A stretch of 64,000 nucleotides of DNA from Nitrososphaerota archaeon (GCA_040290255.1 PSMU01000001.1:328699-392698), one strand, 5' to 3'; counted from the first letter of the stretch, positions 4,411 to 61,342 are shown. Notes: generated by a model from the letters alone, not told the origin. Numbers and translations are program-made.

Positions 4411-5757
4411 TTGCCGGGCCCGCGCCTGCTCATAAGGAACGCCCGCAGGCTTCTTCCCGATGGCGGCCTGGAGACCTGCCATCTTCTCTCGAACGAGCAG
4501 GGCCTGATCGAGTACATAGGGAGGCAGGAGCCTCCAGCCCAGGGGGAGGTGCTCGAGGCCGGCGGCCGCCTGCTGGTGCCGGGGCTCGTGGACGCGCACG
4601 TGCACCTAAGGGACTGGGGCGAGGCGCACAAGGAGGACCTTTCGACCGGCACGAAGGCGGCACTGGCCGGCGGCTTCACGACGGTGGCGGAGATGCCCAA
4701 CACGAAGCCCCCCATCACGGCCGCAGCGCTGCTGGAGCGGCGGTTCAGGGATATCAGGCAGAGGGCCTACTGCCACGTGGGCGTCTGGAGCTCCCCCTCC
4801 TCGCCCGCCGCCGCCGCCGAGCTGGCCGCGCTGGGCACGCTGGGCTTTAAGCTCTACCTGCACAGGCCGCTGGATGGCGCCGACTACAGCAGGCAAGAGG
4901 CCCTTGCCCCCCTCTTCGAGCAGGCCGCGCGCCTGGGCCTGCCGGTGGTGGTGCACGCGGAGCTGAGCTCGCTTCTGCGCCCGCTGGGAGAGGCCTACGA
5001 TGCCCACGAGCACGCCAGGGCCCATCCTCCCGAGGCCGAGCTTGAGGCGGTGCGCTCCGTGCTGGAGCTGAGCGCCCGCACGGGGACCAGGCTTCACATA
5101 GCGCACGTGAGCTTGGCGGGCTCCCTTCGTCTCATTCAAAGGGCCAGGGCGGAGGGGCGCGCGGTGAGCTGCGAGGCGACGCCCCACCACCTGCTGCTCA
5201 GCGCGCGGGAGCTGGGCCGCCTGGGCCGCCTGGGCATCGTGGAGCCGCCGCTGAGGCAGGCCAGGGATGCGGCCTCGCTGAGGAGGGGGTTGAAGAGCGG
5301 CCTCGTGCAGGTGATAGCCTCCGATCACGCGCCCCATGCCCTGGATGAAAAGGCCTCCCCCCGCCCCCCGCCGGGTTTTCCCGGGCTCGAGGTGGTGGTG
5401 CCCGTGCTCTTCACGTGGGCCAAGAGGGGGCTGCTGGGGCTGGGCGAAGTGATCCAGGCGCTCACCAGGTCGCCCTGCGCCCTCTTGGGCTTAAACGATA
5501 GGGGGGAGCTGAGGCAGGGGCTGAGGTGCGACCTCGCGCTCATCGACCTTAAGGCCGAGGGGATCCTGGACCCCTCGCGCTTCCTCTCGAAGGCAAAGTA
5601 CTCGCCCTTTTCGGGCTTTAAGTATGAGGCGGCGGTCCATGCGACGATCATAGGCGGAAAGGTCGCATATATAGAGGGGGAGGTGCTGGAGAGGCTGGGC
5701 GATGTCGTCAGGGGCCCCCTCGCTGCTCGTGGATTCCATGCTGGGGAGCCTGGCTAG
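4411..5757 (+). CDS. pyrC: dihydroorotase (cyclic amidohydrolase family)
   Basis: GLVDAHVHLRDWG metal-binding motif, HIAHVS, ASDHAPH; length about 440 aa consistent with type I DHOase/allantoinase family. Confidence 0.75.
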   Translation: MPGPRLLIRNARRLLPDGGLETCHLLSNEQGLIEYIGRQEPPAQGEVLEAGGRLLVPGLVDAHVHLRDWGEAHKEDLSTGTKAALAGGFTTVAEMPNTKPPITAAALLERRFRDIRQRAYCHVGVWSSPSSPAAAAELAALGTLGFKLYLHRPLDGADYSRQEALAPLFEQAARLGLPVVVHAELSSLLRPLGEAYDAHEHARAHPPEAELEAVRSVLELSARTGTRLHIAHVSLAGSLRLIQRARAEGRAVSCEATPHHLLLSARELGRLGRLGIVEPPLRQARDAASLRRGLKSGLVQVIASDHAPHALDEKASPRPPPGFPGLEVVVPVLFTWAKRGLLGLGEVIQALTRSPCALLGLNDRGELRQGLRCDLALIDLKAEGILDPSRFLSKAKYSPFSGFKYEAAVHATIIGGKVAYIEGEVLERLGDVVRGPLAARGFHAGEPG

Positions 5758-6214
5758 GAAGCTGAGGCTCTACGGGCTAGATGCCGAATACGAGCCCAGG
5801 GCCTCGGACCAGGAGCTGCTCTCGAGGGCGAGGGACGAGGGGAGGGTGCTCATCAGCTCGGACAGGGCGCTCGTCGCGCGAGCGAAGCGGCTGGGGGTTG
5901 CGGCCCTGCTCGTCGAGGCGGGAGGGGATGCGGAGGCCCTCGCCCAGGTCTTCCTGGGCCTGGGCCTTAGGCCCGAGGGCCTCTCGCCCGATAGGGCGCG
6001 CTGCTCGCGCTGCAACGGGGAGGTGGCCAGGGCCTCCAAGCGGAGCGTCAGGAACAAGGTGGCTCCGCGCACCTTCTCGGCCTACTCGGCCTTTTACATC
6101 TGCCGGAGGTGCGGCAAGGTCTACTGGGAGGGCGCGCACTGGAGGCGGATCCTGGCGCTGCACGGCCGCGTGCTAAAGCTCCTGGCCGCCGCTCGTTCAC
6201 GGCCCACCCTCTGA
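5738..6214 (+). CDS. Mut7-C/DUF82 PIN-like RNase domain protein with C-terminal zinc ribbon
   Basis: MLGSLARKLRLYGLD N-terminus typical of Mut7-C (PF01927) and CSRCNG...CRRCGKVYWEGAHW zinc ribbon; start taken at internal Met. Confidence 0.5.
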   Translation: MLGSLARKLRLYGLDAEYEPRASDQELLSRARDEGRVLISSDRALVARAKRLGVAALLVEAGGDAEALAQVFLGLGLRPEGLSPDRARCSRCNGEVARASKRSVRNKVAPRTFSAYSAFYICRRCGKVYWEGAHWRRILALHGRVLKLLAAARSRPTL

Positions 6215-6258
6215 GCGGGGTTTAAAACTTAATAATAAACCCAAGCCGGCCTCATCAA

Positions 6259-7503
6259 ATGGAGTCGTACGCCAAGGACTTCATAGCCTTGGAGCGACTT
6301 CATTCGCCTCCCGTGTGGGAGAGGCACATCGAGATCGTCGAGAGGAAGGGCAAGGGCCACCCCGACACGCTCATCGACTGCCTCGCGGAGGATGCCTCGC
6401 TCGCGCTGGCCAACTACTACTATAAAACCTACGGCAGGCTCCTCCACTACAACCTGGACAAGGGCATCATCGTCGGAGGGCGCTCGGCCCCCAGGTTTGG
6501 GGGCGGGGAGGTGCTGGAGCCCATCTATATCCTCCTGGCCGGGCGGGCGACGAGCAGCGTGGCGGTGGAGGGGAGGCAGGAGTTCATCCCCGTGGTGCCC
6601 CTGGTGCTGGGGGAGGCCAGGCGGTCCCTCAGCAGGCTGCTTCGCTTCCTAGACCCCGACAGGCACGTGGTCGTGGACTGCAAGGTAAAGCAGGGCTCCG
6701 GGGAGCTGATCAAGCTGGTGGGCGAGGGCAAGCTGGGCGCGGGGCCCGGCGTCCTGGCGAACGACAGCTCTCTGGGCGTGGGCTTCGCCCCGCTCAGCCC
6801 CCTGGAGGGGCTCGTGCTCAACGTGGAGAGGCACCTTAATTCAGAGGCGTATAAGCGCGTGCATCCTGAGGTGGGCGAGGACGTTAAGGTGATCGCGGTC
6901 CGGAGGGGGGATCAGGTGGAGCTCACGGTGGCCGCGGCCATGATCAGCCACCTCGTGAAGGACCGCGCACATTACAGGAGGATAAAGCAGGAGGTGGCCG
7001 AGGAGGTGCAGCAGCTGGCCCAGGGGCTGCTCCCCCAGGGCTACTCGCTGAAGGTGAACATAAACGCCGCGGACAGGGAGGAGGAGGGCTACTGCTACAT
7101 CACCGTGACGGGCACCTCGGCGGAAATGGGCGATGATGGAAACACGGGCAGGGGCAACAAGGCGAACGGGCTCATCACGCCCATGCGGGAGCAGTCGATG
7201 GAGGCCGTGGCGGGGAAGAACGCGCTGAACCATAGCGGGAAGCTCTTCAACCTCCTCGCGCAGCGCATGGCCGAAGAGGTCTGCCAGATCTCCGGCATAA
7301 GGGAGGCCTACGTGAGGCTCGTGAGCAAGATAGGCCATCCGCTGAAGAGGCCCCTGCTGGCCAGCGTGGGCCTCGTGCTGGAGCCGAGCGTCACCCTCGC
7401 TTCGGTGAGCGAGAGGGTGGAGAACGCCGTGCTGGCCAAGCTGGAGGAGCTGCCCCTGCTCACGCAGGAGCTCCTAAGCGGGCGCCTGCGCGCCGTCTGC
7501 TAG
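6259..7503 (+). CDS. mat: archaeal-type S-adenosylmethionine synthetase
   Basis: N-terminal ...KGKGHPDTLIDCLAED... and overall 414-aa architecture of archaeal MAT (PF01941); TATA-like tttaaaacttaataataaa upstream. Confidence 0.9.
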   Translation: MESYAKDFIALERLHSPPVWERHIEIVERKGKGHPDTLIDCLAEDASLALANYYYKTYGRLLHYNLDKGIIVGGRSAPRFGGGEVLEPIYILLAGRATSSVAVEGRQEFIPVVPLVLGEARRSLSRLLRFLDPDRHVVVDCKVKQGSGELIKLVGEGKLGAGPGVLANDSSLGVGFAPLSPLEGLVLNVERHLNSEAYKRVHPEVGEDVKVIAVRRGDQVELTVAAAMISHLVKDRAHYRRIKQEVAEEVQQLAQGLLPQGYSLKVNINAADREEEGYCYITVTGTSAEMGDDGNTGRGNKANGLITPMREQSMEAVAGKNALNHSGKLFNLLAQRMAEEVCQISGIREAYVRLVSKIGHPLKRPLLASVGLVLEPSVTLASVSERVENAVLAKLEELPLLTQELLSGRLRAVC

Positions 7504-11067: not shown

Positions 11068-11997
11068 GTGCTCGTGCCCGCCCATATAACGGGCTTCTTC
11101 TATCCGCTGCTGGACTCACCGGATCCGCTACGCCAGGGCTCGCTGGGCGCGGGCGTCTCGCTGCAGATGGGCATGCGCACCGAGGCCGAGTTCCTTGAGG
11201 GAGAGCAGGGGAGCGTGGAGGTCTGGATAAATGGGGAGCAGGTCGAGGAGGCCCCCGTCAGCCGGCGCGTGGGCGAGCTGCTCCTGCTCTGGAGCCGGAA
11301 GAGCGGTAAGCTCGTCCTGAGGCATGAGGCCTACGCCCCCATAGGCGCGGGCTTCGGCATGAGCGGCGCGGCGGCGCTCGGCGCGGCCCTCGCGGGGGCC
11401 AGGGCGCTGGGCCTGGCCCTAAGGCCCCTTCAGCTCGCCCAACTGGCCCACCTGGTGGAGGTGGAGCAGCGCACGGGGCTGGGCACGGTGATAGCCGAGT
11501 ACTATGGAGGCCTCGAGCTGAGGCTCAGGCCCGGCGCGCCCGGCATAGGCCAGCTGATCAAGCTGAAGCTCGCCGAACCATATTACGTGCTGGCCTCGTA
11601 CAATGGGCCGATGAGCACCCGGGCCCTGCTCTCCAGCCAGGAGGTCCTGAGCGAGGTGAGGGCCCTTGCCCCTTCCCTCCTGGCGCGCCTGCTCAGGGAG
11701 CCCAGCGCCGAGCTGTTCATGAGGCTGAGCCACGAGTTCTCGCTCGCGCTCACCGGCGTGCCGGGCGCCGTGAAGGAGGAGCTGAGGAGGCTTAGGCAGG
11801 AGGGCCTGCTCATGGCCATGGCGATGTTCGGCCACACGTACTTCACGCTCGTGCCCGAGTCCCGGCTCGACGAGGAAAGGAGGAGGGCCTCGCAGCTGAT
11901 CGCGGGGCGCAGGCTCTACCTCGCCAGGGTGGATGAGGAGGGCTTGGAGGGAAGGCTGCTCTATGAGGATCCCGCCCAACCATCCCAGGGCCGCTAG
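11068..11997 (+). CDS. pantoate kinase (archaeal GHMP-family kinase, PoK)
   Basis: GHMP kinase motifs (PIGAGFGMSGAAALGAALA) and VPAHITGFF N-terminus typical of archaeal pantoate kinase; GTG start inferred; adjacent to PPS/panB/panE/coaBC. Confidence 0.6.
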   Translation: MLVPAHITGFFYPLLDSPDPLRQGSLGAGVSLQMGMRTEAEFLEGEQGSVEVWINGEQVEEAPVSRRVGELLLLWSRKSGKLVLRHEAYAPIGAGFGMSGAAALGAALAGARALGLALRPLQLAQLAHLVEVEQRTGLGTVIAEYYGGLELRLRPGAPGIGQLIKLKLAEPYYVLASYNGPMSTRALLSSQEVLSEVRALAPSLLARLLREPSAELFMRLSHEFSLALTGVPGAVKEELRRLRQEGLLMAMAMFGHTYFTLVPESRLDEERRRASQLIAGRRLYLARVDEEGLEGRLLYEDPAQPSQGR

Positions 11998-43658: not shown

Positions 43659-44105
43659 TTGGAGCGTAGGCTAAGGACCAAACTGGTGGCCGCAGTTCTT
43701 CCTCTGCTAATCCTCCTAGGGGCAAGCGCCGCGTATGCCGTGACCATATCTCTCAGCAGCTCTAACGTAATGCCGATAGGGGGCACGGGACTCGTTACCG
43801 TGAATTGCCCAGCACAACCCTGCGCGGTGAGCAAAGTAACTTGGACGCTGGACACCTCACCTCCCTTCTACGTAGCCAGCGCAACCGTGTCCTGGACGCC
43901 CAGCCAAGATGGAGACTACCAGGTCTGCGTAAACCTCTATGGTAGCGATGGCAACCCGCTCAATAATGGAAGCGGCTGCATCACCAAACGCTTACCTGGA
44001 GGCACGGCTACAAGTACCACCGTGCCCTTCTCTGGGACGGGCTCGTCGAGGCCAAACCCAAGGGATATCTATAAGGTGGAAGTGATAATAGTCCAGACTC
44101 CTTGA
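43659..44105 (+). CDS. small secreted beta-rich protein, paralog A (Sec signal peptide, AYA cleavage site)
   Basis: TTG start; signal peptide LVAAVLPLLILLGASAAYA; mature N-terminus ISLSSSNVMPIGGTGLVTV paralogous to next two genes; Ser/Thr-rich; lower GC. Confidence 0.55.
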   Translation: MERRLRTKLVAAVLPLLILLGASAAYAVTISLSSSNVMPIGGTGLVTVNCPAQPCAVSKVTWTLDTSPPFYVASATVSWTPSQDGDYQVCVNLYGSDGNPLNNGSGCITKRLPGGTATSTTVPFSGTGSSRPNPRDIYKVEVIIVQTP

Positions 44106-44482
44106 GAAGACTTTTTTTGCTGCTGCTTCTCTCAATTATCTTAGCCCCGGCCTACGCGCTCTTAATAAGCCCCGTAAATGTCCAGCCCGCCGAAGGCATA
44201 AGGGTGGACCTCACGCGCCCCCTCAACAGCTGCTTTGAAGTAAAGGGGCTCGCCTTTTCCTTCAGCGCCACGTCCATAACCTCCGTCACGATAACGGTTT
44301 TTAACACATGCAACTCTCGAGAAACGGCGGATGTCTTGATTACCTGGTACCTAAGGGATGGGAGCTCTTTACAGACTCATATGACCATTCAGGTGCCCGG
44401 GCTGGGAACCAAGGCTGGCTCCGCCGCTTTATCCAACCCCATTCCCTTCGCCTCCCTGATTAAGGTGGTCGTGAATGTCTAG
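44102..44482 (+). CDS. small secreted beta-rich protein, paralog B
   Basis: TTG start overlapping previous stop; signal peptide ...ILAPAYA; mature SPVNVQPAEG... Confidence 0.55.
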   Translation: MRRLFLLLLLSIILAPAYALLISPVNVQPAEGIRVDLTRPLNSCFEVKGLAFSFSATSITSVTITVFNTCNSRETADVLITWYLRDGSSLQTHMTIQVPGLGTKAGSAALSNPIPFASLIKVVVNV

Positions 44483-44918
44483 AACTAGGACTTCGGCCGC
44501 GCTGTTCTTCGCGGGCCTGCTGCTCTTATTGATGGCCACCCCCTATGAGGCCTTCTCATCCCTGCTTGCCATCTCCACCATTAGGCCGGTGGGGGGCTCC
44601 GGCCTTGTACCCGTGCCCAAGGACGGCGTGCTGATGATCCGCATAAGCCTAAGCATGGGGGGAAACCTGGCCGATGATCGCATAAATCGGTTAGATATAG
44701 CGCTGCGGGCCTCGGACCCCAGCTACTCCTGCCCCGGCGGCTCGCGGTGTTATACGCTCGCCTATACGCTATATCTGGATAACTCCCTTTCGAGCTCCCG
44801 CAGCCGCGCCGTTTCGGTAACCACTACGGCAACTACAATCACCTTCAGCTTTTCTCCGCTTAATCAGGCCGGCGCGCAAAACCTCTCCATAATAATTAAC
44901 GTGGTGAGAAGTTCATGA
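44475..44918 (+). CDS. small secreted beta-rich protein, paralog C
   Basis: ATG overlapping previous stop; signal peptide AALFFAGLLLLLMATPYEA; mature ISTIRPVGGSGLVPV matches paralog A. Confidence 0.55.
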   Translation: MSRTRTSAALFFAGLLLLLMATPYEAFSSLLAISTIRPVGGSGLVPVPKDGVLMIRISLSMGGNLADDRINRLDIALRASDPSYSCPGGSRCYTLAYTLYLDNSLSSSRSRAVSVTTTATTITFSFSPLNQAGAQNLSIIINVVRSS

Positions 44919-45355
44919 TGAAGCGCGAGGCCTTCCTCCTCGGCATGGGCCTTCTCCTAACGGCCTATGGCGGCTATGGGCTGGCGCAGCGCCTCACGCT
45001 CTACTATGTAGCCTCTGGCTCCATGGAGCCCTACTTGCCCACAGGGAGCTTAATATTGGTTGAGCGCGGCGCCGTGCCCGCGGCCGGCGACATAGCGCTA
45101 GTGAACTATTACGGTGAGCCGCTCGTGCATAGGGTCGTGCGGGTAGACCCGAGCTCGGGCATAATATGGCTTACCGCCGACGCGCAGCCGGGCTTCGTTC
45201 AGCAAGCAAAGCTGAGGGATTTAATCGGCGTCGTCGTCCTGGCATTGCCCTACTTTGGCTATATGGCCATGCTTGCAAGGGCTTACCCCTGGCTTACTAC
45301 AGCTATGCTGGGAGCGCTTATATCGCTAATCCTATTGAGGTGGATTAAGGGGTGA
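44915..45355 (+). CDS. signal peptidase I, archaeal/ER (Sec11/SipW) type
   Basis: N-terminal TM, SGSMEP box B with nucleophilic Ser, GDIALVNYYGEPLVHRVVRV box D His, C-terminal second TM as in SipW; ATGA overlap with upstream gene. Confidence 0.75.
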   Translation: MMKREAFLLGMGLLLTAYGGYGLAQRLTLYYVASGSMEPYLPTGSLILVERGAVPAAGDIALVNYYGEPLVHRVVRVDPSSGIIWLTADAQPGFVQQAKLRDLIGVVVLALPYFGYMAMLARAYPWLTTAMLGALISLILLRWIKG

Positions 45356-46632
45356 GGAGGCCCCTCAAGGCGCTCCTTACGCTCGCGCTGCTCTTTCCCC
45401 TACTTGCTCATCCCTCCCATGCCATCGCTTCGGTGACCGTCGACGTCCCCTTTCAAATATCAGCCACGCTTGATGGAAGGCCGCTGCTGATAAGCGGCGC
45501 GGCGCAGGTCTCCGGCACGCTGTGCCTGCCCCTGCTCGTGTACGCTTCTCCTCTAGAGCGCTATGCCTTCGAGGGCTGGTATGTTAATGCCACGCGCATC
45601 TCAACGGGCTCCTGCCTAAGCGTAAGCGAGGGCAGCTACCTGGCGCACTACAAGCCGCAGTTCCTGGTGGGCCTGGCCTCGGATCCGCCGGGCCTCCTCT
45701 CGACGAGCCTTTGGGCAAATGCGAGCGAGCCCACGCCCATTTCCCTTCCGACGCAGATAGAGCGAGAAGGGGTGAGGGCCAGGCTTATCGCCGCTTACTT
45801 CAACGGATATCCCCTTCCAATAATAAACGGGAGCATCGTCATAGGCGTAAGGGCCCCAGCCCTAATAACCCTGGCCTATGAGAAGTTCGTGAGGATAACC
45901 ATCATGGGCCCTAACTTCACGCGAGAGCTCTGGGCCAGGGCCGGAGCGCCGATAGCCCTACCGCTTCCTGATTATGTGCCCGTAGCCGAGGGCGCAAGAT
46001 TACGGCTGGTCGCAGCGTATGCTGGGCAGACAGAGATAGGCCGAACCTACATACCCGGCGAGCCCGTGCTCATAGCCGCGGCCTATGTAAGGCAATATTA
46101 TGTGAGGGTAAGCTCGCCCCAGGGGGCTTTAGTTGAGGGCTGGTATGATGAAGGCACTCAGCTCAGTATATCCGCGCCTGAGATGATAAGCATGGGCCCC
46201 GGCAGGAGGCTGGCCTTCCTGGGCTGGAGCGGCATAAACTACACGGGCAGCAGCCTCGGCTTAACTGTACGGGCTCCGATCAACGCCACGGCCCTGTACG
46301 AGCTCCAGGTGGAGGTTCAGCTAATGACTCCCCTGGGAACTTCGAGCTACTGGATAGGAGCGGGGAAGACGATGGCCCTCAGCCTGCCCACCTCCCTTCC
46401 CGCCTCCCTCGGCTTCGTCAGAAGCCTGGTGGGCGTAACGATGAATGGAAAGAGCCTGCCAGTAGATAAGGGCATAATCATGGTTACCCCCCTCGAGCCC
46501 TCGATGGTGGTGGCGCAGTATTCGCTCTCACTGGACCCTCAGGGCCTCCTAATACTTGCAGGGATTGGGCTGCTCATTTCGGCGCTTTACCTCGGCCTGA
46601 GCAGGGCCAAGAAGAGGGAGAAGCCCGATTAG
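45352..46632 (+). CDS. large secreted protein with C-terminal TM anchor and basic tail (surface-anchored)
   Basis: GTG start overlapping SPase stop; signal peptide ...LAHPSHA; repeated F/L.GW motifs; many N-x-S/T sequons; C-terminal LLILAGIGLLISALYLGL + SRAKKREKPD. Confidence 0.6.
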   Translation: MRRPLKALLTLALLFPLLAHPSHAIASVTVDVPFQISATLDGRPLLISGAAQVSGTLCLPLLVYASPLERYAFEGWYVNATRISTGSCLSVSEGSYLAHYKPQFLVGLASDPPGLLSTSLWANASEPTPISLPTQIEREGVRARLIAAYFNGYPLPIINGSIVIGVRAPALITLAYEKFVRITIMGPNFTRELWARAGAPIALPLPDYVPVAEGARLRLVAAYAGQTEIGRTYIPGEPVLIAAAYVRQYYVRVSSPQGALVEGWYDEGTQLSISAPEMISMGPGRRLAFLGWSGINYTGSSLGLTVRAPINATALYELQVEVQLMTPLGTSSYWIGAGKTMALSLPTSLPASLGFVRSLVGVTMNGKSLPVDKGIIMVTPLEPSMVVAQYSLSLDPQGLLILAGIGLLISALYLGLSRAKKREKPD

Positions 46633-57313: not shown

Positions 57314-57399
57314 GGCGCCCCATTTCGCCCCGCGCTTAAAGCTTCTTGTGGGCGGCCTAGGCCTTAGCTAAATATGTAGGGCCCCTAAGGCGGGAGGGG

Positions 57400-58212
57400 T
57401 TGAAGGCCAAGGCCGGGGCGCTCCTCTTCCTCCTCCTGGCGCTCCTCCCACTTCCCTCGAGCGGCGCGCAGGTCACGCAGGTCTCGATCCTGCTGGACCC
57501 GACGGGCTACGCTTCGGTGAGCATGCTGGTGAGCTTCAATTCGAGCGAGGCGATCGCGCTCGTGCCCATGGTGGGCCGGCCGGACCTCTTCACGCTCACG
57601 GCCCGGGATGCGGGGGGCCAGCAGGTGCCCTTCAACCTGACGGACACGAGGATAAGCCTCCTGCTCCTGGGCGTCTCGTCGCCCGTAAAGTTGAGCTACT
57701 ATACCTCCAACCTCACGGCGAAGAGGGGGCCCATGTGGAACGTCAGCTTCGTGGCCCCCGCGCCCACCACGCTCACGCTGCCCCAGGGGGCCGTGTTGAT
57801 CTCCGTGAACCGCCTCCCCCAGGATGTGTCGACGGCCAACGGCGCCACGCAGCTCCTCCTGGCGCCCGGCCCCTGGTCCATCTCCTACTTCCTCAGGCCC
57901 CCTCCTCCAGCTTCGGCCGGCTTCCCGTACCTGCTCGTGGCCGGCGCGACGGGCGGCGCGGCGGTGAGCCTTGCCGTGGCCCTGGCCTACATCAGGCTAA
58001 GGAGGAGGAAGGGCGAGGCCCGCCTCCGGCCCGATGACAGGCGCATCCTGGACTTCCTCAGGGCCATAGGGGGGCAGGCCTATGAGAGCGACATCGTGCG
58101 CGAGCTGAACCTGCCCAAGACCTCGGTGTGGAGGGCGATAAAGCGCCTCTCGGATGCGGGCCTGGTGAGGGTCGAGAGGGAGGGCAACAGGGTGAAGGTG
58201 ATTGCCAAGTAG
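57400..58212 (+). CDS. membrane-anchored winged-helix transcription regulator with N-terminal extracellular domain
   Basis: TTG start with TATA-like ctaaatat about 27 nt upstream; signal peptide; about 170-aa beta-rich ectodomain with N-x-S/T sequons; single TM (YLLVAGATGGAAVSLAVALAYI); cytoplasmic RLRRRKGE + MarR-like wHTH (ILDFLRA...SDIVRELNLPKTSVWRAIKRLSDAGLVRVE). Confidence 0.6.
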   Translation: MKAKAGALLFLLLALLPLPSSGAQVTQVSILLDPTGYASVSMLVSFNSSEAIALVPMVGRPDLFTLTARDAGGQQVPFNLTDTRISLLLLGVSSPVKLSYYTSNLTAKRGPMWNVSFVAPAPTTLTLPQGAVLISVNRLPQDVSTANGATQLLLAPGPWSISYFLRPPPPASAGFPYLLVAGATGGAAVSLAVALAYIRLRRRKGEARLRPDDRRILDFLRAIGGQAYESDIVRELNLPKTSVWRAIKRLSDAGLVRVEREGNRVKVIAK

Positions 58213-58215
58213 GCG

Positions 58216-58262
58216 GGAAACGTTCCGAAACGGGTTCCTGCTGGAGGCCTTTTATAAGGCCC
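58216..58262. promoter_or_regulatory. operator-like repeats (GGAAACGTTCC, GAAACGGGTTCC) followed by palindromic TATA element GGCCTTTTATAAGGCC
   Basis: Seen directly between the wHTH regulator stop (58212) and the ATG (58286) of the secreted coiled-coil protein. Confidence 0.35.
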
Positions 58263-58285
58263 CGTGCAGCTCCTCCACGAGGGAA

Positions 58286-60010
58286 ATGGCCACCAGGCCC
58301 ATCCTCGCGGCCCTGCTGCTGGCGCTGCTCACGCTCGCCGCCTTTGCGCCCCTGGCCAGCAGGGCTTCGCCTCCCCAGGAGGGCAAGCAGGCCGCGCTGC
58401 AGGCGCTTCAGGCCGTGCTGCAGGGCCTGCAGGACCTCAGGCAATACCTCTCGAGCACGAACGCCGGCGCCCAGGCGCTTCAGGCCCTGGATGGCGCGAT
58501 CGCCAACCTCCGGGCCACGATCGAGATCGTGAACGCCACGGGCGATGCAAGGGCGGCCGAGGCCACGCTTGCCTATGAATCCTCGCGGCTGGCGCAGCTG
58601 CTGGGCGCTCTTGGGCCTGGCGCGCTCGGATCGGAGAGGCTGCAGAGGGCGCTTCAGCTCGCGCAGGGGAGGGCGGCGGAGCTCTCCCAGCAGGTGGGCC
58701 AGCTGCCCTCGGGCCCGCTGAGGTCCTCGCTGCTGCGGCTCCTTCAGCAGGCGAACCAGAGCCTCGCCCAGGCCTCCGGCCAGCTGCAGCAGGGCAACGT
58801 TTCGGGCGCCGCCCATGCGCTGGTCCAGGCCAAGGCGCTCTTGGGCCTCGTCAACGCGGCCCTCTCCAGGCATTTAGGGCAGGAGAGGCTGGAGAGGTAT
58901 GGGCCTCAGGCGAGGGCCGCGCTGGAGAGGGCGCTGGCCAGGCTGCTGGAGAGGGCCTCAAAGCTGAAGGCGCAGGGCCTGGGCGCCCAGGCCCTCCTGC
59001 TGCTGGAGAGGGCCCTCGAGCTGGGCAAGGGCGCCGGCCGGTTGCTGAACAGCTCGGACCTGCAGGGCGCGATCTCCGCGCTGGCCCAGGCCGAGGAGCT
59101 GCTCGAGGAGGCGGAGGAGCACGCGGGCGAAGCACGGCAGGCGCTCTCATCGCTCACCGAGAGGGCGCAGGAGCTGGGCGATAAGTTAAGCGAGCTGGCC
59201 GCACGGCTGGCCTCGGCGCAGCTGCCGCCGGAGAGGCGGGCCCTGGCCAGCTCCCTGCTCTCCAACGCCACGGCCGCGCTGAATGGGGCCCTTATGGCGC
59301 TTGCGCAGGGCAGGCTCAAGGACGCCTCCCTGCTCTTGGACCGAGCCTCCTCGCTGCTGGCCCAGCTGCTGCAGCTGCTGGAGAGCGGGGGCCGGGGCTC
59401 GATAGGGGAGGCCCGGCTGGAGATAAGGGCGCGGCTCACGCCCCAGCAGCTCCGGCTCGAGATAGAGAATGCCGGCCAGGAGGCGGCCACGCTCATCTAC
59501 ATCAGGCTGCTGGACGCGGCCGGCGCCGAGGTGGCCCTCACGTGGTCCTCCTCTTGCCTGGGCACGCTCGCGCCCGGCGATAGGGCCAAGTGCGCGGCCC
59601 AGCTGCAGGCCCGGCCCAATCAGGCCTACACGCTCGTGGTGGGCGCGAAGCCCTCCTCCTCGCCCAACGTGAGCGAGATAAGGCTGCCGCTCCTGGCCCA
59701 GGCCGCGGCGCTGGGCCTGCTGAAGTTGGAGGGCGAGATAAAGGGCAACCTGTTGGAGCTCAAGCTGGAGGCCGAGCACGCGGCGTTCACGATAGAGGCG
59801 ATTAGGGTGCTGACGCCCTCCCATCAGGAGCTGCAGCTGAGCTGGGTTAGCCCCTGCCCCAGCTCCCTGGCCGCAGGGCAGAGCGCGGAGTGCACGGCCA
59901 CGGCCTCCTTTGTGGCCGGCCAGCCCTACATCGTGCTCGTGCAGGCGAGGTCCGAGGGAGGGGCCAGCATGATGCTCCAGCTCATCCTGCTGGCGCAGCA
60001 CGAGGATTAG
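58286..60010 (+). CDS. secreted coiled-coil (Ala/Leu/Gln-rich) protein with two C-terminal Cys-containing beta-sandwich-like repeats
   Basis: Start at MATRPIL with signal peptide ...AAFAPLASRA; about 400 aa low-complexity helical region; C-terminal repeats each with conserved Cys pair. Confidence 0.55.
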   Translation: MATRPILAALLLALLTLAAFAPLASRASPPQEGKQAALQALQAVLQGLQDLRQYLSSTNAGAQALQALDGAIANLRATIEIVNATGDARAAEATLAYESSRLAQLLGALGPGALGSERLQRALQLAQGRAAELSQQVGQLPSGPLRSSLLRLLQQANQSLAQASGQLQQGNVSGAAHALVQAKALLGLVNAALSRHLGQERLERYGPQARAALERALARLLERASKLKAQGLGAQALLLLERALELGKGAGRLLNSSDLQGAISALAQAEELLEEAEEHAGEARQALSSLTERAQELGDKLSELAARLASAQLPPERRALASSLLSNATAALNGALMALAQGRLKDASLLLDRASSLLAQLLQLLESGGRGSIGEARLEIRARLTPQQLRLEIENAGQEAATLIYIRLLDAAGAEVALTWSSSCLGTLAPGDRAKCAAQLQARPNQAYTLVVGAKPSSSPNVSEIRLPLLAQAAALGLLKLEGEIKGNLLELKLEAEHAAFTIEAIRVLTPSHQELQLSWVSPCPSSLAAGQSAECTATASFVAGQPYIVLVQARSEGGASMMLQLILLAQHED

Positions 60011-61342
60011 CTACCTCATCCTTATATAGGCATAGGCCTCCGTCTGGGACTCGAAGCAGTAGAGGACCCTCTGGAAGGGCCTCCTCAGCTCCCTGACCTC
60101 CTCCCTTACCCTCTCGGGCTCCTCGCCCTTCACCACCCTGGCGATGAGCCTGGCTATCTCCTTCATCTCGCCCTTCCCCATCCCCAGCCTCGTGACCTCC
60201 TGCGTGCCCAGCCGGATGCCCGAGGGGTTCCGGTAGTGCAGTCCCTTCTGAATGTCCCCGTAGAGCAGCTGCCTGTTCACGATGATATTCGCCCTCTCGA
60301 GCCTCCTCTCCGCATCGCCCCCCAGGCAGTACCTGGAGACGTCCACGGCCACCTGATGGCTCTGCGTGAAGCCCCTGCGCTCGCCCACCACATCCAGGCC
60401 CTCCTCGTGGAGCGCCTGGGCCAGGGCCCTCGCGTTCTCCACGACCCTCAGGCAATACTCGCGGCCAAAGGCGAGCATCTCGGCAAAGGCGAGCGCCTTG
60501 CCCGCCACGTGGTGCAGGTGGTGGTTCGAGACGGTGGCCGGGAAGGTGGTGGCCTTTATCACCTCGCCATTCCTTTCATCGCTCACGATGGCGCCCCCCT
60601 GGGGCCCCGGTATGGTCTTATGGGTGCTCATCGTCATCACCCTTGCCCCCTCCCTGAGGGGATCCTGAAAGAGCCCGGCCGCCACCAGCCCGGCCACGTG
60701 GGCGGCATCATAGCAGACGAGCGCGCCCACCTCCTCGAGCGCGGGGGCCAGCTCCTTCAGCGGCTCGGGAAAGAGGATGAGCGAGCCGCCGAACATGGCG
60801 ATCCTGGGCGGCTTATTGGCCCTGGCCATCTCCCTTATCTTGACCCTCGCGGCGTCCACATCTATCTGCAGCTCCTCATCATCGAAGGGCATGTACTGGA
60901 CGTCCAGCCTGCTCACGAAGCCGGCCGTGCCCCTCACCCTCTCGGGGCCCATGGAGACGTGCCCCCCCTTCACGATGGGCTTCACCAGCATGACGTCGCC
61001 CGCCCTCGCGAAGGCGCTGTAGACCACGAGGTTCGCGACGAGGCCCGAGGTCGGCCTCACGTCGGCAAAGGGGGCCCTGAAGAGCTGCTTCGCCAGCTCT
61101 ATGGCGATCTCCTCGGCCCTATCTATGTAGGTGCAGCCCGCGTAGACGCGCTCGCCGGGCCATCCCTGCGGGGGCTATGCCCTCTCCGCGTACCTGTTGC
61201 CGAAGTCGCTGGCGAGCGCCTCCCTTACCGCCGGGCTGGGCACGTTCTCCGAGGCGATCAGCGGAAGCGCCTCGCTGAACCACCTGTGGTGGCGCTGGAG
61301 CAGCTCCAGCACCTCCTCATAGTACTCCCTCGGCCCCTTCAT
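60011..61342 (-). pseudogene. glyA: serine hydroxymethyltransferase interrupted by an in-frame TAG (6-codon insertion in conserved core)
   Basis: N-terminal 56 codons (MKGPREYYEEV...LIASENVPSPAV...NRYAE) end at TAG 61175-61177; frame continues ...PPQGWPGERVYAGCTYID... into the 349-aa ORF; removing 18 nt (61166-61183) restores consensus NRYAEGWPGERVYAGC. Confidence 0.6.

Follow-up and report, generated by a model that had tools for sequence, protein, structure and literature searches.

A conserved archaeal gene pair encoding a predicted membrane-anchored winged-helix protein and a secreted helical-repeat partner in Nitrososphaerota

The subject of this study is a pair of adjacent genes, here called p1 and p2, which lie at positions 57,400–60,010 of a stretch of 64,000 nucleotides from a Nitrososphaerota archaeon (GCA_040290255.1, PSMU01000001.1:328699-392698); this whole stretch is hereafter the window, and positions are counted from its first letter. 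The product of p1 combines a signal peptide, an extracellular beta-sandwich domain, a single transmembrane (TM) helix and a small cytoplasmic winged helix-turn-helix (wHTH), and that of p2 is a predicted secreted protein made of helical hairpins and two Ig-like domains. Proteins built like p1 form a large archaeal family, members of this family recur beside p2 orthologues or related partners in distant lineages and are sometimes fused to a helical module of their own, and a DNA motif of GAAAC/GTTCC repeats is conserved at a fixed position in front of the partner gene. Based on these comparisons, we tentatively propose, with slightly less than even confidence, that p1 acts as a one-component transcription regulator of the type-I transmembrane kind and that its secreted partner p2 is under its control. 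A preliminary description of the same DNA had suggested a membrane-anchored regulator next to a secreted protein.

The gene p1 and its parts are the following:

57400-58212, plus strand: p1, predicted membrane protein of type I with one TM pass and a winged helix at the C-terminus, 270 aa, TTG start
57400-57468, plus strand: predicted signal peptide of p1 (aa 1-23; hydropathy peak at aa 5-23), probable cleavage between SGA and QV
57469-57897, plus strand: predicted extracellular beta-sandwich domain of p1 (aa 24-166), bearing the family signature (AlphaFold2, AF2, and ectodomain profile)
57928-57993, plus strand: predicted TM helix of p1 (aa 177-198), followed by RLRRRK (hydropathy; a helix in the AF2 model)
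58024-58209, plus strand: predicted cytoplasmic wHTH of p1 (aa 209-270), with recognition helix PKTSVWRAIKRL (Pfam DUF7343, AF2)

Hydropathy, the positive-inside rule and the confinement of sequons to the ectodomain give p1 a topology of signal peptide, ectodomain outside, one TM helix and wHTH inside, just as the preliminary description had it for a 270-aa product with a sequon-rich ectodomain. The alanine-glutamine junction at the cleavage-type site is kept in homologues. Four N-x-S/T sequons were counted (N47, N79, N104, and N114), all of them in the ectodomain, vs. 1.05 expected from shuffles (P ~0.009), and the cytoplasmic tail contains 20 K + R vs. 10 D + E, with a net charge of +10 over the C-terminal 72 residues. 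In an AF2 model built with six homologues the ectodomain is all-beta (pLDDT ~90) and the wHTH consists of three helices and a beta wing (pLDDT ~90), and the model is uncertain at the signal peptide, the linker and the TM helix. A prepilin-type N-terminus of p1 (processing between KAG and A) was dropped, as that site is not kept in homologues and the protein has a globular domain and a C-terminal TM helix.

The winged helix was called MarR-like in the preliminary description, which is right only in the loose sense of a winged helix. Residues 211-263 reach the gathering threshold of Pfam DUF7343 (PF24034) by a narrow margin (28.7 bits, cut-off 27.6), while the MarR models stay below theirs (MarR, PF01047, 17.3 vs. 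24.6; MarR_2, PF12802, 26.1 vs. 27); TrmB, HTH_20 and others also fall just under their Pfam cut-offs, with several wHTH families at E-values of 1e−5 to 1e−3, and the NCBIfam models gave weak ArsR, Sta1 and Lrs14 similarities only. The cytoplasmic part (72 aa) comprises three helices and a two-strand wing only, and the MarR fold of ~140 aa with its N- and C-terminal dimerisation helices is absent. Structural matches of the C-terminus obtained with Foldseek were winged helices of the ArsR, MarR and AspA types. Transmembrane transcription regulators (TTRs) have been delimited as proteins with a predicted TM segment and a predicted cytoplasmic DNA-binding domain in one polypeptide (PMC10269533), and p1 has both.

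A word-indexed search with p1 returned five relatives only, all with the same architecture and annotated as 'uncharacterized membrane protein', 'MarR family' or 'helix-turn-helix'. When only the ectodomain was used to build a profile and 1.84 billion cluster representatives (50% identity) were scanned with it, 622 proteins were retrieved at E ≤ 1e−3 and 422 at E ≤ 1e−10. In nearly all of the 150 best profile matches the ectodomain adjoins an N-terminal hydrophobic segment, and about two-thirds of the top 154 family members end in a wHTH with the motif PKT[TS]xWRxxKRLE, the remaining third being made up of proteins that end just after the TM helix and of contig-truncated fragments. Pfam annotation of 150 members yielded DUF7343 in 70 of them and occasional CARDB or Big domains, and left the ectodomain unmatched. 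The named members come from Nitrososphaerota (Nitrososphaeria), Bathyarchaeia and Thermoprotei, and a pattern scan of one genome per species found relatives in 301 species genomes, the best 80 of which were mostly Nitrosopumilus, Nitrosarchaeum and other ammonia oxidisers. We propose these ectodomain-TM-wHTH proteins of Thermoproteota as a new family, to which p1 belongs both by its ectodomain and by its helical partner.

None of 36 ectodomains matched a Pfam family even at E ≤ 10 (Ribophorin_I, PF04597, and Peptidase_M1_N, PF17900, included), the ectodomain profile had no match among PDB sequences, and hhalign against the M1 N-terminal region of the same genome gave a probability of 0.2%. In the PDB, Foldseek placed the ectodomain closest to M1 aminopeptidases (their N-terminal beta domain; E down to 4.6e−6) and to human ribophorin I in the oligosaccharyltransferase (OST) complex (6s7t_E, E 1.7e−5; 6s7o_E, aligned over 320 columns), and a catalytic domain of the M1 peptidase type (HEXXH) is missing from p1. 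Because the ectodomain has no sequence tie to the PDB or to the M1 peptidase of its own genome, it is by these searches new as a sequence family, of a fold type already known, and not an enzyme, and its earlier placement outside known enzyme families stands. Its conserved residues (G36, Y100, K108, W113, P128, P140, G157, and Y163) are spread over the ~140-aa N-terminal beta domain. In the recognition-helix region three positions are invariant (P239, W244, and R249) and three almost invariant (K240, R245, and L250) among 21 homologues; as this helix stays near-invariant while the ectodomain diverges to 25% identity, a conserved DNA target is to be expected. Literature searches of the available library on DUF7343, PF24034 and membrane-anchored wHTH regulators in Thaumarchaeota yielded no description of the ectodomain family, its partner or the motif, and no mention of DUF7343.

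The partner gene is laid out as follows:

58286-60010, plus strand: p2, 574 aa from ATG, predicted secreted protein of helical repeats and two Ig-like domains
58286-58366, plus strand: predicted signal peptide of p2 (aa 1-27; hydropathy peak at aa 5-25)
58373-59383, plus strand: predicted helical-hairpin array of p2 (aa 30-366), ~12 helices, Leu/Ala/Gln-rich (AF2, composition)
59423-59695, plus strand: beta repeat 1 of p2, with Cys424/Cys436 (repeat alignment; poorly modelled in AF2)
59717-59965, plus strand: beta repeat 2 of p2, with Cys524/Cys536, predicted generic Ig-like sandwich (AF2, pLDDT ~75)

Gene callers begin p2 at TTG 58202 (602 aa), whereas a start at ATG 58286, 28 nt downstream of a TATA box, yields a canonical signal peptide. 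This ATG is taken as the start of a gene with its own promoter because, in the relative L001 (L-numbers denote loci of relatives; p1 is 71% identical in this one), the TATA block is near-identical and the ATG is found at the same distance from it, the spacer between the two being poorly conserved. That p2 is secreted, as described before, agrees with its N-terminal hydrophobic segment and its six sequons (vs. 1.4 expected, P ~0.002), and the length given earlier (575 aa) is corrected to 574 aa. The long coiled coil of the preliminary description gives way to ~12 predicted antiparallel helices of 20-50 residues, joined by short loops into hairpins or bundles (single-sequence AF2, pLDDT 64), while its two Cys-pair beta repeats were recovered (Cys 424/436 and 524/536) and appear Ig-like. 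Beta repeat 2 resembled filamin, DsbD-alpha and FlaF/FlaG-type sandwiches in Foldseek (E 4e−4 to 2e−2). In Pfam, no match of p2 was better than E 0.008, and the C-terminal repeats had none above threshold (Ig_GlcNase 16.7 bits, cut-off 26.3; FxLYD and choice-of-anchor D also sub-cut-off). Word-indexed homology searches with p2, alone or as a 3-sequence profile, returned only p2 itself, probably because its low-complexity helices swamp the index, and its orthologues were found via the neighbourhoods of p1 homologues.

The loci of relatives were obtained with a 6-sequence alignment, which biases the 80 loci to those Nitrososphaeria that have the pattern P[KR][TS][TS]xWRA[IV][KR], and neighbourhoods were counted in 81 loci, mostly of Nitrosopumilales/Nitrosopumilaceae. 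Orthologues of p2 stand directly downstream of p1 homologues in L001 (p2 55% identical), in L004 (an AT-rich Nitrososphaeria genome with a 38% identical p1; p2 orthologue at phmmer E 6.5e−53) and in L088 (p1 homologue of 39% identity). All share the helical region and a C-x11-C beta domain, the latter in two copies in the window and L001 and in one copy in L004 and L088. At 55 of the 81 loci, mostly of Nitrosopumilales, the family gene is the middle one of a tight three-gene unit. The first gene of this unit encodes a 95-aa HTH_45 (Sso10a-like) protein, whose end overlaps the start of the family gene by 4 nt, and the third, directly after the family gene (start and stop overlapping at the loci read), a secreted helical protein of 264-435 aa. 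In hhalign the Nitrosopumilales partner family was related to the p2 profile with a probability of 93% (E 2.4e−7, 214 columns), vs. 1-2% for reversed and ~0.1% for column-shuffled controls. In a Bathyarchaeia locus (L084) the gene directly upstream of the family gene encodes a secreted helical-repeat protein of 326 aa. Moreover, 21 family members (about a fifth) carry a module of 120-140 aa fused between ectodomain and TM helix, formed by two helical hairpins with the pattern A..A[YF]..G.Y..A; its profile was weakly similar to the p2 and partner families (24% and 55% probability; reversed controls < 1%). On these lines of evidence, the pairing of p1 and p2 is real and goes beyond local synteny, and the co-occurrence suggested earlier is borne out by the orthologues or related partners beside p1 homologues in distant lineages.

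Two other kinds of neighbour were observed. At about 12 Nitrosopumilus loci the third gene of the unit encodes a 116-aa secreted beta protein with a CxxC motif (GCVSC) in place of the helical partner (L021, L025, L026, L034, L040, L047, L053, L060, L062, L074, and L075), and this slot precedes radical-SAM-type and GTP-cyclohydrolase-like genes (assigned by eye from the translations). These 116-aa proteins show no homology to the Cys-pair beta repeats of p2 (probability 0.7%). On the Thermoprotei contig L085, a gene for a 661-aa Lon_C-domain protease (4888-6873, plus strand) directly follows the p1 homologue, which is a single case.

Three elements of the intergenic DNA bear on how the two genes may be expressed:

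58217-58238, plus strand: tandem repeat resembling an operator, GAAACGTTCC-GAAACGGGTTCC, which stops 11 nt short of the p2 TATA box
58246-58261, plus strand: putative p2 promoter, TATA box TTTTATAA (58250-58257) in the palindrome GGCCTTTTATAAGGCC, identical in L001
57362-57390, plus strand: probable p1 promoter, TATA-like CTAAATAT (57368-57375) in the inverted repeat CCTTAG...CTAAGG, from the sequence

The palindromic TATA box attributed to p2 in the preliminary description (TTTTATAA inside GGCCTTTTATAAGGCC, reading GGCCTT-TTAT-AAGGCC) was found again and is kept in L001, and the region 58213-58262, singled out there for DNA binding, indeed holds a conserved and statistically unusual operator-like element. 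GAAAC-N0-4-GTTCC matches twice in the 64-kb window, both times at 58217-58238, vs. 0.09 expected matches. At least three of the pentamers GAAAC, GTTTC, GTTCC and GGAAC within 30 nt occur nowhere else in the window, and of 200 random sequences generated from the dinucleotide transition frequencies of the window, none contained a cluster of four. The element is retained in L001 as GGAACGTTCC-GAAACCCGTTCC; at the same intergenic position L004 has GTTTC-N9-GAAAC-N5-GAAAC, and L084 has GAAAC-N5-GAAAC-N4-GTTCC immediately before the gene of the helical protein. In Nitrosopumilales the operon promoter consensus is GA-AAC-N5-GTTCCGCT-N3-GTTCCGCT-N5-GTTTCA-N3-TGTTCC, with blocks that are > 90% conserved among 67 distinct sequences with variable flanks, and this element (L009-L083) lies ~60-110 nt upstream of the HTH_45 gene heading the operon of HTH_45, membrane wHTH and secreted protein. 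Across 920 kb of related loci, GAAAC-N0-6-GTTCC had 42 matches, 31 of them 200-600 nt upstream of the family gene, which is the operon promoter position in Nitrosopumilales, and four just downstream of it. It was not found near the family gene in the partner-less loci L002, L005, L007, L008 and L085-L087. Present at partner promoters and missing at partner-less loci, the motif is, on these comparisons, one that tracks the promoter driving the partner gene. It occurs without an adjacent small wHTH (HTH_45) gene in the window, L001, L004 and L084, and these four lineages favour p1 over HTH_45 as the binder without proving it.

The TATA-like element of p1 lies ~25-30 nt before the TTG start, and the promoter block CTTAGCTAAATA is kept in L001 between differing flanks and has no GAAAC/GTTCC cluster. 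Another block, GCTTAAAGCTTCTTG (57333-57347), located between p1 and the divergent gene for prolyl-tRNA synthetase (ProRS), is conserved in L001 amid differing intergenic DNA and may be the ProRS promoter on the minus strand.

Because the motif tracks the partner promoter and the recognition helix is near-invariant, we propose that p1 regulates p2. In the suggested mechanism, removal of the signal peptide would leave the conserved beta-sandwich outside, one helix across the membrane and the small basic winged helix at the cytoplasmic face. From the membrane, this winged helix would bind the GAAAC/GTTCC repeats just upstream of the BRE/TATA elements (BRE, the TFB recognition element) of the next gene, and DNA binding and regulation in the membrane-bound state are predicted from the conserved cluster of these repeats at partner promoters. 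Binding would control the production of p2, a secreted, probably glycosylated protein of helical repeats and Ig domains. A site upstream of an archaeal TATA box suggests that the control may be by activation. The ectodomain could in turn read p2 or its state of assembly, the presumed signal, and thereby close a feedback loop on an envelope or extracellular component; in the fused variants the covalently attached helical module might feed back via the ectodomain.

Several observations weigh against this proposal. The Nitrosopumilales operon also encodes the HTH_45 protein of 95 aa (Sso10a-like), a possible binder of the motif, and in p1 only ~12 residues link the TM helix to the wHTH, which would require the DNA to approach the membrane very closely. 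The wHTH of p1 is minimal and has no dimerisation helices, yet the site looks dyadic or tandem, and in L088 the motif is weak, with one degenerate copy. Four loci (two of Conexivisphaera sp., two labelled only Thaumarchaeota or Nitrososphaeria archaeon) have p1 without an adjacent partner, as do a Thermoprotei locus and two others for the family gene. The count of 55 of 81 overstates the number of independent observations because most loci come from one family, and it is the cross-lineage cases that carry the argument for pairing. Similarity between helical repeats can also be compositional, and the comparison with the fused module reaches 24-55% only.

If p1 and p2 were instead structural components of the envelope (an anchor or scaffold under the S-layer), the winged helix would tether nucleic acid or a cytoplasmic partner, and a soluble factor such as HTH_45 would bind the motif. 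The third or so of family members lacking the wHTH motif include proteins that end just after the TM helix, which implies an ectodomain role independent of DNA binding; some members carry CARDB or Big domains, which are typical of surface proteins, p2 orthologues have sub-threshold matches to the SbsC spectrin-like repeat and to YfdX, and an HTH_45 gene heads the Nitrosopumilales operon. However, a generic tether needs no near-invariant recognition helix, and this helix, together with the motif co-conserved in places where no HTH_45 gene is adjacent, fits a sequence-specific regulator; we regard a structural role as unlikely. Regulated release, which we consider distinctly unlikely, would make p1 a factor kept inactive in the membrane until a signal at the ectodomain (possibly with p2) leads to its cleavage in or close to the membrane, after which the freed 70-aa winged helix would act in the cytoplasm. 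Tethered regulators are known to undergo regulated intramembrane proteolysis, e.g., the anti-sigma factor RsiV (PMC4183432). The linker is very short in p1 and has 50-80 residues in the Nitrosopumilales homologues, and with such variation it is not obvious that linker length is under selection for action at the membrane; the gene of a membrane Lon-type protease also directly follows the family gene in the Thermoprotei locus L085. That adjacency is a single case, though, no protease gene is conserved beside the module in the 81 loci or adjoins p1 in the window, and no cleavage motif was identified.

It would also be conceivable that p1 and p2 are unrelated neighbours and that the intergenic motif is an ordinary element of the p2 promoter, given that each gene has its own promoter in the window and that Conexivisphaera relatives keep p1 without p2. 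This explanation is improbable and already disfavoured: adjacency recurs at p1 identities of 25-39% and at very different base compositions (the GC-rich window and L001 vs. the AT-rich L004, L088 and Nitrosopumilales), the Bathyarchaeia locus has the opposite gene order, fused versions exist, and the rest of the 64-kb window has no copy of the motif. The least probable explanation, in our view a very remote one, is a glycosylation accessory, with an ectodomain distantly related to ribophorin I/Ost1, p1 aiding the AglB oligosaccharyltransferase, and the winged helix contacting ribosomes or RNA like the ribophorin I tail. It draws on the Foldseek matches to ribophorin I and on a common topology (signal peptide, lumenal beta domain, one TM helix, cytosolic tail), but the matches to N-domains of M1 peptidases, proteins with no part in glycosylation, are as good or better, there is no sequence signal to Pfam (E ≤ 10) or PDB sequences, no glycosylation genes are conserved nearby, and the tail is a wHTH of the DNA-binding type.

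The window has a GC content of ~67%, and the closest named relatives of the p1 gene are those of Conexivisphaera and other Nitrososphaeria. Codon-position GC fits real genes (GC at third positions 0.92 in p1 and 0.90 in p2 vs. 0.50 at second positions), and Rfam had no match in the window at gathering thresholds. The pair is surrounded by housekeeping genes, among them one for a YGR210-like GTPase and the two immediate neighbours listed here, and the gene order around it is the same in L001:

55871-57313, minus strand: ProRS, housekeeping neighbour
60011-61342, minus strand: serine hydroxymethyltransferase (SHMT), housekeeping neighbour

The preliminary description had further linked the pair to a nearby fibre locus, presumably the genes at 43659-46632 (plus strand), and this link could not be upheld: housekeeping genes lie in between (PolB, aminotransferase, arginase, threonyl-tRNA synthetase (ThrRS), and ProRS, in the same order in L001), the motif is absent from that locus, and the p1/p2 module sits at loci with unrelated neighbouring genes in Nitrosopumilales. 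The genes at 43659-46632 are lower in GC content (58-63% vs. ~67%) and overlap consecutively by 4-8 nt. They encode three small secreted beta-rich proteins (148, 126, and 147 aa) with no Pfam matches, a signal peptidase of the S24/S26 type (44915-45355) and a protein of 426 aa that has a TM helix at its C-terminus, a composition which may resemble that of TasA/SipW-like or archaeal bundling-pilus loci. The low-GC segment at 43.5-46.7 kb was also considered as rRNA, which was rejected since it is protein-coding.

In the neighbouring SHMT gene (glyA) the reading frame is interrupted by an insert of 18 nt with an in-frame TAG (61166-61183, minus strand), and in L001 an insert of 19 nt at the same point (11755-11773, minus strand) shifts the frame. 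Both inserts fit, by eye, a relaxed bulge-helix-bulge motif, in which a central GCGG/CCGC helix is combined with an inner hairpin and two bulges of 3 nt: GCGG / AGA / GGGC-AUA-GCCC / CCGC / AGG in the window and GCGG / AAA / GGGU-UUCC-ACCC / CCGC / AGG in L001, with one compensatory pair change between them. A cut after the second nucleotide of each bulge would remove exactly 18 or 19 nt, giving ...RYAEGWPGERVY... and restoring RYAE followed by GWPGERVY, and the spliced product aligns gap-free to the best-matching solved SHMT structure (PDB 4uqv, RYAEGLPGKRLY; E 4e−119). The minimum-free-energy fold of ~100 nt around the insert, calculated with ViennaRNA, did not return the bulge-helix-bulge, and a metagenome scan for further copies of the insert gave 20 unrelated GC-rich matches, none in SHMT context. 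The first archaeal gene for which pre-mRNA splicing was shown is cbf5 (PMC2738675). We consider the SHMT insert a candidate for an mRNA mini-intron within a protein-coding gene of an archaeon. To our knowledge, few other cases of archaeal pre-mRNA splicing are known beyond cbf5, and the mini-intron, if real, would be a new one among the few spliced protein-coding genes of Archaea.

Ammonia-oxidising archaea and their relatives are globally abundant and, as far as we know, few of their transcription regulators have been characterised. The present comparisons turn a gene pair into a defined family, which can be recognised by its ectodomain, has a conserved partner and for which a concrete DNA target is predicted (GAAAC/GTTCC, with GTTCCGCT repeats in Nitrosopumilus). 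In a broader interpretation, the secreted helical-repeat protein, the type-I receptor with its DNA-reading winged helix and the GAAAC/GTTCC operator, joined by the Sso10a-like protein in Nitrosopumilales, would constitute a conserved and so far undescribed archaeal module, shared by practically all of the marine and soil ammonia oxidisers examined among the archaea and by Bathyarchaeia, and serving as their main coupling between envelope or surroundings and transcription; we put this forward as a possibility that we rather doubt. We know of little other recognised signal transduction in the ammonia-oxidising lineages.

Both bacteria and archaea are known to have regulators that are membrane-bound and act from there, and a census of TTRs is available (Demey et al. 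2023, PMC10269533). Like p1, those of the ToxR/TcpP/CadC type are single-pass proteins with an extracytoplasmic domain and a winged-helix DNA-binding domain in one polypeptide, through which an outside signal can reach the promoter without a phosphorelay. ToxR and TcpP work with the co-encoded extracytoplasmic partners ToxS and TcpH. The orientation of p1 is reversed compared with ToxR and CadC, as it has a cleavable signal peptide, the N-terminus outside and the DNA-binding domain at the C-terminus; their wHTH is N-terminal, cytoplasmic and of the OmpR type, while that of p1 belongs to the DUF7343/ArsR-MarR-TrmB type. Neither the domain order of ToxR/CadC nor a Trans_reg_C match was found in p1, and its ectodomain and partner have no sequence relation to those of ToxR, TcpP and CadC. 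In Archaea, ArnR and ArnR1 of Sulfolobus acidocaldarius are membrane-bound regulators of the archaellum, with an HTH in the N-terminal region and anchoring by transmembrane segments (PMC13286277, PMC4858521). They resemble p1, as read here, in being archaeal membrane-bound transcription factors that control genes for surface structures. We know of no extracellular domain or secreted partner of ArnR, and no homology between p1 and ArnR was detected. Pfam DUF7343 (PF24034) itself is an archaeal winged helix of unknown function, which covers the 60-aa wHTH only and whose entry is silent on ectodomain, partner and target. The N-terminal beta domains of M1 aminopeptidases and ribophorin I (Ost1) have a fold like that of the p1 ectodomain (Foldseek E ~5e−6 to 1e−3), a resemblance of fold only, as p1 has no sequence relation to them, no peptidase catalytic domain and no OST context. 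For p2, the nearest likeness is to spectrin-like/SbsC-type and YfdX-type proteins, which are also secreted arrays of antiparallel helices, all Pfam matches to them in p2 relatives being sub-cut-off. If the proposed control of p2 by p1 is true, the pair would represent a one-component pathway from the outside to the promoter with a membrane orientation opposite to that of the bacterial ToxR/CadC paradigm, and it would provide a handle on the regulation of surface and envelope proteins in these archaea.

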